Of a stretch of 64,000 bases of DNA, positions 2,725 through 62,818 are shown piece by piece. The stretch spans positions 2,217 to 66,216 of IMG/VR virus record IMGVR_UViG_2778261457_000003, one strand, 5' to 3'. The position numbers were made by a program, and so were the translations under genes. This stretch comes from a virus (Duplodnaviria > Heunggongvirae > Uroviricota > Caudoviricetes). How positions within the stretch are numbered: position 1 is the first letter of the stretch; each line of letters begins with the position of its first letter. Under the pieces are notes generated by a model. It made no database searches, was not told the DNA's origin, and worked only from the letters and a program-made list of their open reading frames with translations.

Positions 2725-4452
2725 TTACTCAGAGTCACCGGCATCAATCGTGTCGCCGCTTATGAAGTTAAGCCCGCCTTTTTTGGCCATTGTCAGCGTT
2801 ACACGAGTGAAGTAATCAGCGCCGTTGCGTGGGTGCATATCGTTGATAGCCGAACCCCACAGCGTGGTACGGTTGACCAGCGCCGGAGTGGTCGGATGCT
2901 GGAACGGGATGGCCGGGACAGCATCACCAGTCACGAAGCCTGCTTTACCCGGATTTTCATCACGGACGTAGCACAGCACATCCATCGAGCTGAACTGAAT
3001 GTTCTCTGTCGTTAAGTTCTTACAAATACCAGCAGGTACTTCGTACACTTTCACGTTACCGAACAGGGTACCGATGTAGTGAACATACGGAGTCTGGATA
3101 TAGTCTTCGGCTGGCTGGAAGAAATCCTTCGGCAACTGTTTGAAGAAAGATGCTGCATCAGCACCAGCAAACATCCCCATCGCACCAGAAGATTTAACGC
3201 GCTCAATAATGTCGCGATATACAGTCTGGAATTTGCCACGAATGATGGTTGCCCATACATCAAAGGACTGGTTAACCGGCAGAGCGATGTCAAAGGTGTC
3301 GGTCGCAAGAGTACGCCAGATCATGATGCGGAGACGCAACATATCCTGTTCATGGGACAGGTATTCTTTCAGGGTGCGGAACTGTAGGGAACCCAGGTCC
3401 AGACCAAATTCACGCTGTGCTTCATACGCCGCCTGTACCGTGTGCTCAGCCGCGATAACGAACTGGCTTGGGAACAGGGTGTATTTCTTCATTTCGTGGT
3501 TGATTAGCGGGATCAGCTCAGGAGCGGCTTCAATATTGATTTCCGTCTCAATTGCGATCTCAGTGCCTTTATCCGGCGCTTTGGAGAACGACAGGGCAAT
3601 CTGACCAATGTTGTAGTTCAGAGAGCAGGTAACAGTGATTTGCTCACCAGCAGCATTAGTAAACGAGTGAAGTAGGCTGCCGGAACCGTTATCAACAACA
3701 GACTTAATACGGTTAACGTAGATATTAGTGCGACCTTTTCGGATTGGTACATTCTGGCCTTCGAAGTCTTCCATCTTGAAGGTTGCGGTTTTGCTGGTGC
3801 CATCGGAGCTTGCCACCAGCACATAGCGGCGGCGTAACTGGCTGTACACACCGACGGATTGCATGTCCAGAACATCACCAGCAGCATAAGAACCAAAAGA
3901 GGAACCTGCCACGTTAAAGACTTCATAGATGTCGGACTGGTCACGCGTAACCGGAATGAAGGTACACGCATCAGCGGTAGCTGCCCCCAACTGAACAGGC
4001 AGGATCATCGCGAGGAATAAAGGCAGACGCATAACACCGTCAGAAACGCTCATCATCTCTGCTGCGACGGATTCCAGCATCGCTTTATTAGTGGCATCCA
4101 TGCTATTGCGGGTGGACTCAATCAGGCAGTTTTCCAGCGTCTGGTGGCAGGAGGCCAGAATTTCCGGACGCGGCATAGATTTATGTGCTGCGGCGTAGTC
4201 AGCCAGTGCACTTGCCCACGCTGTAGCGATTTGAGCGGTGGCATTATCAGAGATACCCGCAAAAACCGGGTCTTTACGTGCAGCTTCAAGGATAGATGCG
4301 GCACGCGCGGCATCATCTTTAATGAATTGGTTATCAGTACCGAACTGCGCAGTGCTTGCCCAGCCAAGCACAGCTTTAGAGCGTTTTGCGATATCTGCAA
4401 TACGATTCTGGTATTCGCGTAAGTTACTCAATTTACTCTTCCTTAAACACAA
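2725..4452 (-). CDS. major head (capsid) protein (P1 gp23-like)
   Basis: 575-aa ORF immediately downstream of parS, as in P1; the first ATG may not be the true start. Confidence 0.55.
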   Translation of the reverse strand: MCLRKSKLSNLREYQNRIADIAKRSKAVLGWASTAQFGTDNQFIKDDAARAASILEAARKDPVFAGISDNATAQIATAWASALADYAAAHKSMPRPEILASCHQTLENCLIESTRNSMDATNKAMLESVAAEMMSVSDGVMRLPLFLAMILPVQLGAATADACTFIPVTRDQSDIYEVFNVAGSSFGSYAAGDVLDMQSVGVYSQLRRRYVLVASSDGTSKTATFKMEDFEGQNVPIRKGRTNIYVNRIKSVVDNGSGSLLHSFTNAAGEQITVTCSLNYNIGQIALSFSKAPDKGTEIAIETEINIEAAPELIPLINHEMKKYTLFPSQFVIAAEHTVQAAYEAQREFGLDLGSLQFRTLKEYLSHEQDMLRLRIMIWRTLATDTFDIALPVNQSFDVWATIIRGKFQTVYRDIIERVKSSGAMGMFAGADAASFFKQLPKDFFQPAEDYIQTPYVHYIGTLFGNVKVYEVPAGICKNLTTENIQFSSMDVLCYVRDENPGKAGFVTGDAVPAIPFQHPTTPALVNRTTLWGSAINDMHPRNGADYFTRVTLTMAKKGGLNFISGDTIDAGDSE

Positions 4453-58581: not shown

Positions 58582-61312
<2,731 letters not shown>

Positions 61313-61323
61313 CCACCAAAAAT

Positions 61324-61350
61324 AACCCCGGCAGCTGCCGGGGTTCTCGT
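61324..61350 (+). terminator. rho-independent terminator (aaccccggcagctgccggggtt)
   Basis: perfect 8-bp GC stem after the pro stop. Confidence 0.6.
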
Positions 61351-61356
61351 TAACTA

Positions 61357-61611
61357 TTATCGCCTTCGCCTGCGTGCCATATATTTGCGCACCGCGCGGC
61401 GTGGACAATCTGAAGCGGTTTCTTTCTGCTGCATCAATCTTGCAGCCATGCTCAAAAATGTCAGGCACAGCCGAAGCCCTGCATACAATAGCGGTTCCAG
61501 TGGCCACGTCTCATTGAGCACATATACCGCCATGAAAATCGAGTCGAAAACTATCGCCGCCAGCGATAACTTCATTGTCGAAAGTCGGCGGAGCTGCCGG
61601 AGTTTATTCAT
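61357..61611 (-). CDS. small two-TM membrane protein with Arg-rich C-terminus (holin/antiholin-like), downstream of lyz
   Basis: 84 aa; hydrophobic segments LSLAAIVFDSIFMAVYVL and LLYAGLRLCLTFLSMAARL; overlaps lyz 3' end by 8 nt. Confidence 0.35.
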   Translation of the reverse strand: MNKLRQLRRLSTMKLSLAAIVFDSIFMAVYVLNETWPLEPLLYAGLRLCLTFLSMAARLMQQKETASDCPRRAVRKYMARRRRR

Positions 61612-62161
61612 TGACCAGTCCCGTCAGGCAAAGCTGGCGTTCTTTTTCACGGCGAATCTTTAAACCTCGCAGGGGCACGCCGTTACTGTTCACGAAATCA
61701 GGGAGATGGTTACACATATTCACCCATTCCCCTTTCTGCGCCCACTTGTGGATGGACGTTTCGACTCGCATGCCTCGCGCTTTGCTGTAGTAGGTCCGTA
61801 AGCTATTGCATCCCATATTGAATGCCGCGCTTGTCATTGCGCTGAAGGCATTATCGGGCATGTCTTTGCCCCGGAAGTGCTGATTAATACAGCGTTCAGC
61901 GATCAGGATATTCTTTTCCCAATCAGCGGCGATTTGCTGGTCGGTTTTTCGCACACCCGGCGTTACCCCGTGTGTATTACCGATCCCGTCAGTCCATACC
62001 CCCGCCGGGCACATGTATGGATCACGTCGGCAACCTTCAGCGTTACCAATCAGCTCAAGCCCCGCCTGGTTGGTTCGCACATTGCCATTACCCATTACGA
62101 TGGTAATCATCACCGCGATAGCGCAAATTGCACCGCCTCCTGCGGCTGTTTTTCCCTTCAT
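61604..62161 (-). CDS. lyz: SAR-type endolysin (T4-lysozyme fold with N-terminal signal-anchor-release segment)
   Basis: 185 aa; N-terminal Gly/Ala-rich weakly hydrophobic segment AAGGGAICAIAVMITIVMG; catalytic E-x8-(D/C)-x5-T context ELIGNAEGCRRDPYMCPAGVWT. Confidence 0.8.
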   Translation of the reverse strand: MKGKTAAGGGAICAIAVMITIVMGNGNVRTNQAGLELIGNAEGCRRDPYMCPAGVWTDGIGNTHGVTPGVRKTDQQIAADWEKNILIAERCINQHFRGKDMPDNAFSAMTSAAFNMGCNSLRTYYSKARGMRVETSIHKWAQKGEWVNMCNHLPDFVNSNGVPLRGLKIRREKERQLCLTGLVNE

Positions 62162-62293
62162 AAAGACCTCATAAGCGAATTTTTACGCTCCAGGACAAAC
62201 ACCCATTCACAGCCAATACCGACTGACTCGATCCCTTTAGAAGACACAGGATAATGCAAATCACTTGTTAGCTACGTTTCAAAGATATACATT

Positions 62294-62310
62294 ATTGCTC
62301 TAATTAATTT
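62294..62310 (+). promoter_or_regulatory. C1 operator-like site ATTGCTCTAATTAATTT upstream of ssb
   Basis: consensus match 20 bp upstream of the ssb RBS. Confidence 0.55.
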
Positions 62311-62329
62311 ATTTTATTAGGTAAGATAA

Positions 62330-62818
62330 GTGGCACAACGCGGTGTAAACAAAGTCATCCTGATTGGTACCCTGGGGCAAGACCCGGAGATCAGGTATAT
62401 ACCAAATGGCGGCGCGGTCGGAAGACTCAGCATCGCAACGAATGAATCATGGCGCGACAAGCAAACGGGCCAACAGAAAGAGCAAACAGAATGGCATAAA
62501 GTCGTTTTGTTCGGAAAACTTGCTGAAATTGCGAGTGAGTATTTACGAAAAGGTTCTCAGGTCTACATCGAAGGGAAACTTAAAACCCGTAAGTGGACAG
62601 ATGACGCCGGTGTAGAACGTTACACGACGGAAATTATCGTCAGCCAGGGCGGCACCATGCAAATGATCGGCGCTCGCCGTGACGATTCACAGTCCTCAAA
62701 TGGCTGGGGGCAATCAAACCAACCTCAAAACCACCAGCAATACAGTGGTGGCGGTAAACCTCAGAGCAACGCTAATAACGAACCCCCAATGGACTTTGAC
62801 GACGATATTCCGTTTTGA
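62330..62818 (+). CDS. ssb: single-stranded DNA-binding protein
   Basis: 162 aa with OB-fold N-terminus and acidic C-terminal tip MDFDDDIPF. Confidence 0.92.

Follow-up and report, generated by a model that had tools for sequence, protein, structure and literature searches.

A SAR (signal-anchor-release) lysozyme gene whose stop codon is overlapped by the start of a second, much smaller gene raises the question of whether the small gene takes part in lysis and, if so, in what capacity. Such a pair lies in the window, by which we mean the whole stretch of 64,000 nucleotides that was analysed. An initial annotation had suggested that the small protein could be a pinholin or an antiholin partner of the lysozyme, and that a partner encoded locally would make a different lysis-control arrangement. 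Over positions 61300-62330, the window showed 100% nucleotide identity to Escherichia phage P1 (AF234172, AF234173 and NC_005856) and 98.3% nucleotide identity to phage P7. By this identity, the whole stretch is bacteriophage P1 itself and the feature is its late lysis operon, lyz-lydD. Positions in P1 record AF234172 were converted to window coordinates by adding 41279.

The feature is already known: it is annotated (the lydD annotation in P1 dates from the 2004 genome record of Lobocka et al.) and experimentally characterised, the pinholin partner having been shown in 2022. Its value as a discovery is small, the gene pair already standing in the reference annotation of P1 and having been dissected by genetics in that year. 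What is new here is minor: purifying selection on lydD, a link between LydD and the Pfam family DUF7940 together with its gene order, and evidence against lydE, a gene annotated over lydD.

The first gene of the operon, lyz, occupies 61604..62161 on the minus strand (185 aa, ATG start) and is called 'lysozyme' in AF234172. Its codons 1-28 (62078..62161, minus strand) encode the N-terminal SAR domain, Cys13 included, as delimited by hydropathy and the literature. The second gene, lydD, follows at 61357..61611 on the minus strand (84 aa, ATG start), with the label 'putative holin' in the P1 and P7 records. The two overlap by 8 nt, ATGAATAA (61604..61611, minus strand), the lydD ATG lying within the last lyz codons. 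Late promoter LPlyz, annotated in AF234172 at record positions 20969..20987, corresponds to 62248..62266 (minus strand) and is the putative driver of lyz-lydD. A terminator scan placed an intrinsic terminator hairpin at 61324..61345 (minus strand); its stem is GC-rich and 9 bp long, a T-run comes after it, and the RNA folds at -19.1 kcal/mol (z=-2.9). This hairpin stands 3' of lydD, between lydD and the convergent head-processing gene pro, which ends at 61312 on the plus strand in the P1 record, and the hairpin motif was present in most related loci. From the annotated features and the single terminator after lydD, we infer that lyz and lydD form a two-gene late operon. With the 8-nt overlap and one terminator, lydD adjoins a SAR endolysin gene with which it would be co-transcribed, as is expected of a pinholin gene. 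The operon does not differ from that described for P1 (AF234172; PMC9025707), and in P7 the gene boundaries, the overlap, the promoter and the terminator are all as in the window. The start of pro is given as a TTG at 60263 in the list of open reading frames (60263..61312, plus strand) and as 60293 in the P1 record (record 19014), a difference between ORF callers only.

The lyz product was 100% identical to PDB 1XJT over all 185 residues and identical to PDB 1XJU over residues 29-185, the soluble crystal form starting at residue 29. It matched Pfam Phage_lysozyme (PF00959) with E=2e-22 and 80.3 bits against a cut-off of 22.3, which assigns it a lysozyme catalytic domain and bears out the lysozyme-like catalytic context proposed in the initial annotation; its match to the PHROG 7 endolysin had E=7e-69. 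A single hydrophobic segment was found at residues 6-24, AAGGGAICAIAVMITIVMG, with a mean Kyte-Doolittle value of 2.07. Gly, Ala, Ser, Thr and Cys make up about half of residues 8-26, which agrees with a weakly hydrophobic N-terminal segment of the SAR type. The weakly hydrophobic, Gly/Ala-rich N-terminus had likewise been read correctly, and it is identical to that of P1 Lyz. Cys13, Glu42, Cys44, Cys51 and Thr57 are all present in the sequence. A hydrophobic, Gly/Ala/Ser-rich lysozyme N-terminus was also found in the relatives L003, L005, L087, L088 and L091.

By sequence, then, the lyz product is P1 Lyz, a SAR endolysin with a lysozyme fold, which we take to be the prototype of the SAR endolysins. 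Sec export, membrane tethering, holin-independent release and a disulfide switch among Cys13, Cys44 and Cys51 were reportedly described for P1 Lyz by Xu et al. in 2004 and 2005. The Sec-exported protein is held inactive at the inner membrane by its N-terminal SAR helix, and its release is possible without a holin (PMC9025707). In a CRISPRi screen, lyz was essential for plaque formation, while lydD and lydE were non-essential (PMC10695390).

LydD has two hydrophobic stretches, at about residues 13-33 (Kyte-Doolittle peak 1.89) and 37-60 (peak 1.42). Four Lys or Arg residues stand among its first 12, ahead of the first transmembrane domain (TMD1), and in its 24-residue tail (61-84), which closes with RRRRR, 10 residues are Lys or Arg and 2 are Asp or Glu. 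An AlphaFold2 model made from a 34-sequence alignment showed long helices at 3-35 and 40-83 joined by a turn at WPLE, with a moderate mean pLDDT of 68. Both hydropathy and the model thus describe a small membrane protein with two transmembrane helices, as a pinholin would be. The two hydrophobic helices, the Arg-rich C-terminus and the 8-nt overlap with the lyz stop (61604..61611) that had been read from the 84-aa ORF were all confirmed, and the proposed prediction of transmembrane segments gave the two hydrophobic stretches and a helical hairpin. LydD matched the PHROG 21930 holin with E=9e-59, and NCBIfam had no model for it. A word-indexed protein search with P1 LydD alone retrieved nothing beyond P1-like relatives, all of them at least 77% identical.

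The reading frame of lydD is conserved at the level of the protein. In 80 P1-like viral contigs, 32 synonymous and 3 non-synonymous variant sites were counted in this frame; nt 1-104 contributed 10 and 2 of these, and nt 105-240 contributed 22 and 1. In the same contigs, the first 240 nt of the gene occurred as 39 nucleotide haplotypes that encoded only 4 protein variants. Two more distant relatives of the gene, in Klebsiella aerogenes and Salmonella, had 68-72% nucleotide and 75-77% protein identity to P1. Their differences were distributed over the three codon positions as 21/12/48 and 19/11/42, an excess at the third position, and change in codons 1-12 was mostly synonymous. The length of LydD was 82-84 aa in every related locus, the variation (82, 83 or 84 aa), which may be real or due to assembly errors, residing in the length of the C-terminal Arg run. 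We conclude that lydD is under strong purifying selection, a minor addition that had not previously been reported. The synonymous bias, which includes codons 1-12, indicates that LydD is made from Met1 and is constrained.

The linkage of the two genes was conserved as well. In 83 of the 84 related loci, lyz lay directly upstream of lydD with an overlap of 8 nt or of 4 nt (ATGA); the upstream gene was unparsed in the remaining one. The overlapping arrangement was kept in L087, a 94-kb P1-like element whose LydD is 45% identical. Because the lydD ATG overlaps the lyz stop, the start of lydD inside the last lyz codons is likely to couple its translation to that of lyz. In L003, L005 and L087, which are more divergent P1-like elements of about 90-95 kb (from Klebsiella, Salmonella and an IMG/VR contig), a block ssb-lyz-lydD was kept at about 2730-4270 in each. 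Downstream of lydD in these elements, pro/prt is replaced by two other genes, one ProQ-like and convergent, the other RepL-like; the ProQ-like gene shares 23 nt with the lydD 3' end in L003 and L005.

The function of LydD has been analysed genetically by Bednarek et al. 2022 (Int J Mol Sci 23:4231, PMC9025707), who concluded that it is a pinholin. On plasmids, lyz with lydD gave quicker and more complete lysis than lyz alone (PMC9025707); the co-expression experiment that the initial annotation had called for, following lysis kinetics with and without the 84-aa ORF, was thus already published, with quicker lysis in the presence of lydD. Plaques were formed by a lydA mutant and by a lydA lydC mutant but not by a lydA lydD double mutant, and lysis in liquid culture was delayed in lydD mutants (PMC9025707). 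When lambda R took the place of lyz in the phage, LydD added nothing; in a two-plasmid system, R and LydD gave no lysis, yet colony-forming units dropped, and LydD was lethal on its own (PMC9025707). The morphology of lysis changed from the SAR-endolysin/pinholin type in the wild type to the canonical type in a lydC lydD mutant (PMC9025707). In shaken liquid cultures of E. coli, LydD alone (in a lydA lydC mutant) gave no lysis (PMC9025707). A Delta-lyz::R lydA mutant did form plaques on E. cloacae (PMC9025707), the one hint that LydD might let a cytoplasmic endolysin out in other conditions. In a methods paper that this group published later, lydD is given as 'pinholin' (PMC10067587).

By these genetic and physiological criteria, it is highly probable that LydD is the pinholin partner of Lyz. 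How much it contributes varies with the host and the growth conditions, from an accessory part in shaken liquid E. coli cultures to sufficiency on plates. Its non-essentiality in the CRISPRi screen (PMC10695390) fits an accessory, redundant role. Of the two roles that had been suggested for the 84-aa protein, that of pinholin was thus supported (PMC9025707), while that of antiholin fell, LydD being lethal alone and speeding lysis. Nor is the arrangement a different one, as had been supposed, because a local LydD together with the unlinked LydA, LydB and LydC is the P1 system as described. The many database entries that call LydD 'holin', 'putative antiholin' or 'hypothetical protein' could be changed to 'pinholin'.

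The three unlinked proteins are encoded elsewhere in the P1 genome and are unrelated to LydD in sequence. LydA and LydC resemble it in being small membrane proteins with two predicted TMDs and a basic C-terminus that cooperate with Lyz (PMC9025707). They differ from it as canonical holins that support lambda R, which LydD does not (PMC9025707). LydB is also a small membrane protein that cooperates in Lyz lysis, in this case as an antiholin encoded in the dar operon with the holin LydA.

A comparison with phage 21 is instructive, as its R21/S21 68 pair likewise consists of a SAR endolysin gene beside a gene for a small two-TMD protein that is unable to release a cytoplasmic endolysin. In phage 21, helix 1 moves out of the bilayer, and helix 2 assembles into a heptamer through a glycine zipper. 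The gene order is reversed between the two phages, P1 having the endolysin and then the pinholin and phage 21 the holin and then the endolysin. The dual start S68/S71 of phage 21 provides an antiholin, S21 71, whereas LydD is known as a single product. In contrast to S21 68, LydD has two residues within its helices, Asp23 and Arg47, that are nearly invariant. In P1, unlike phage 21, the canonical holins LydA and LydC also serve the same endolysin. The lysis logic and morphology of phage 21 are as for Lyz/LydD (PMC9025707), with depolarisation by LydD being a step that we infer. LydD lacks the glycine zipper of S21 68, and it has 4 basic residues before TMD1, a charge that would block activity in S21 68 (PMC9025707).

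No relationship in sequence between the two pinholins was detected. A Pfam scan of LydD gave no family besides DUF7940 at E<=1, the S21 family included, and BLASTP of LydD against an S21 71 sequence gave no alignment at E<=100. Membership of LydD in the S21 68-type pinholin family was rejected on the lack of detectable homology, the absence of a glycine zipper and the charged N-terminus (4 Lys/Arg in 12).

Relatives outside the P1 type were found by profile search. A profile of P1-type LydD matched 14 proteins at E<=0.001 among 1.84 billion cluster representatives. Members of Pfam DUF7940 (PF25612) were retrieved with E=8e-18 to 4e-4, and the matches outside the P1 type were 54-82 aa long. PF25612 itself was matched by 11 of the 12 aligned members (best E=5e-13), and in reverse a profile made from DUF7940 members recovered the Salmonella LydD (E=2.8e-18). 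P1 LydD scored 22.8 bits against PF25612 (E=1.4e-4), under the gathering score of 27, so that it is not formally a member of the family. The alignment of LydD with DUF7940 covers residues 5-62, that is, the N-terminal basic segment and both helices. Within that alignment, the core family conserves Asp23 (helix 1), Glu34, Tyr43, Arg47 (helix 2), Thr51 and Ala57-Arg58, and a basic, Trp-containing N-terminal segment is conserved across it. Asp23 and Arg47 were nearly invariant across LydD and the core DUF7940 members, which are at 26-45% identity. Met13 was invariant within P1-type LydD only, and the DUF7940 members other than P1-type LydD are without the 24-residue Arg/Lys-rich tail. Judged by the profile searches and the shared conserved residues, LydD is homologous to DUF7940, a divergent relative of a Pfam family of unknown function; this relationship is new and minor.

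The contexts of the DUF7940 genes were taken from the contigs that encode the profile-search matches. In three (L088, L089 and L091) of the four non-P1 contigs examined, the DUF7940 gene directly followed a gene for a lysozyme with a hydrophobic N-terminus and was directly followed by a spanin-like gene with an N-terminally anchored product, in L089 a DUF2514 member. This lysozyme-DUF7940-spanin-like cassette occupies 1977-3107 in L088, 1944-3191 in L089 and 1950-3102 in L091. In the remaining contig, L090, which carries phage N4 gp1/gp2-family genes, the DUF7940 gene (2501-2707) was not beside a lysozyme gene. It was seen there between a divergent block with an Acb2/Tad1-hairpin-family gene (PF24729) and the N4 gp1/gp2-family genes. 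A locus search of viral contigs with the DUF7940 member P0010 alone found none. The conserved gene order speaks for a common role across the family and suggests that DUF7940 proteins are LydD-type pinholins, the experimental test covering LydD alone. DUF7940 thereby gains a testable functional hypothesis that is backed by gene order.

Explanations of the 84-aa ORF other than a pinholin were weighed against these results. The ribosome-binding match upstream of the lydD ATG (GGGA) is weak, as it might be before a chance or untranslated frame. Such a frame would not be expected to show the bias of synonymous over non-synonymous variant sites (32 to 3 in the 80 P1-like contigs), to keep its length and frame with a third-position excess in relatives at 68-72% nucleotide identity, or to yield 14 profile matches at E<=0.001 among the 1.84 billion cluster representatives, and the phenotypes of lydD mutants have been published (PMC9025707). 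A chance ORF is ruled out by this conservation pattern and the mutant phenotypes, its probability being negligible. A canonical large-hole holin, or an antiholin that delays lysis, has in its favour the label 'holin' in GenBank, RefSeq and PHROG, the label 'putative antiholin' in one record, and a layout shared with class II holins, which likewise have two TMDs and a basic C-terminus. A large-hole holin would support lysis by lambda R, which LydD failed to do in phage or from plasmids, and an antiholin would neither speed up Lyz-dependent lysis nor be lethal alone (PMC9025707). We regard both of these identities as very improbable.

A subtler possibility lies within the protein itself: LydD might be made from two starts, the 84-aa form from Met1 being an antipinholin and a 72-aa form from Met13 (MKLSL...) the active pinholin. 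Lambda S105/S107 and phage 21 S68/S71 are precedents for such a pair. TMD1 begins exactly at Met13, a residue that does not vary in any P1-like LydD down to 75% identity, and the Met1-Thr12 extension carries the 4 Lys/Arg. Two positive charges added to the N-terminus of S21 68 turned it into an inhibitor (PMC9025707). An internal start of LydD is not discussed in that paper (PMC9025707). On the other hand, neither P1 nor its relatives have a Shine-Dalgarno-like sequence ahead of the codon for Met13, and Met13 is not conserved in the wider DUF7940, where Leu, Ile and Val are also found at this position. The conservation of the basic, Trp-containing N-terminal extension in DUF7940 suggests that the extension is part of the working protein, and the mostly synonymous change in codons 1-12 means that the long (Met1) form is certainly made. 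We consider this division into two forms unlikely, and in what follows LydD is treated as a pinholin that starts at Met1.

In the mechanism that we propose, translation of LydD would begin at the ATG overlapping the lyz stop and would probably be coupled to that of lyz. In the inner membrane it would form a two-helix hairpin with both ends cytoplasmic (N-in/C-in), a topology suggested by the 4 basic residues before helix 1 and the 10 in the C-terminal tail. At a critical concentration, LydD would form small pores and the proton-motive force would collapse. This depolarisation would make release of the Lyz SAR helix faster and synchronous, whereupon Lyz would refold into its active form and degrade the cell wall. 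In P1 lysis, LydD would act in this way together with three unlinked proteins, the canonical holins LydA and LydC and the antiholin LydB.

The state of the two helices in the pore may differ from that in phage 21. With its 4 basic N-terminal residues and no glycine zipper (PMC9025707), LydD probably does not follow the phage 21 pathway, in which helix 1 exits the bilayer. Asp23 and Arg47 are at mid-helix depth and, judged from their positions, may form an intramembrane ion pair. A tentative reading, which we find possible and less probable than its opposite, is that LydD and DUF7940 make up a distinct class of pinholins spread over several phage types in a SAR lysozyme-DUF7940-spanin cassette. 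Both helices would stay embedded in the membrane, held by the conserved basic, Trp-containing N-terminus, and the ion pair between Asp of helix 1 and Arg of helix 2 would gate or line the pore. In a weaker variant of this reading, Met13 could yield a second, shorter LydD in P1-like phages.

The other small gene annotated at this locus, lydE (61292..61507, minus strand; 71 aa, GTG start), is read in another frame over the 3' half of lydD and is called 'putative antiholin' in the P1 record. Over its final third, lydE spans the operon terminator and then reaches the end of pro, which is on the opposite strand. Hydropathy over the 71 aa revealed no hydrophobic segment, and LydE had no PHROG or NCBIfam match. 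In the region of overlap with lydD, 21 of the 23 variant sites among the 80 P1-like contigs were non-synonymous in the lydE frame, with one stop and one synonymous; the same overlap read in the lydD frame gave 22 synonymous against 1 non-synonymous. The overlap encoded 24 different LydE peptides, compared with 4 for LydD(1-80). Among close relatives, the length of the lydE ORF ranged from 11 to 71 aa. In divergent relatives, only 43 or 32 aa of it remained, at 32% identity, compared with 69-76% for LydD over the same nucleotides. Removal of lydE had no phenotype (PMC9025707). On selection, terminator position and this published lack of phenotype, lydE was rejected as a local antiholin partner. 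It is probably not a real gene and would be an annotation artefact that still stands as 'putative antiholin' in P1 records. The two frames also meet in database entries: the proteins P0005, P0006 and P0008, which may be real variants or assembly errors, are chimeras of a LydD N-terminus and a lydE-frame C-terminus, the reading frame of lydD being shifted in its 3' part (61357..61440, minus strand).
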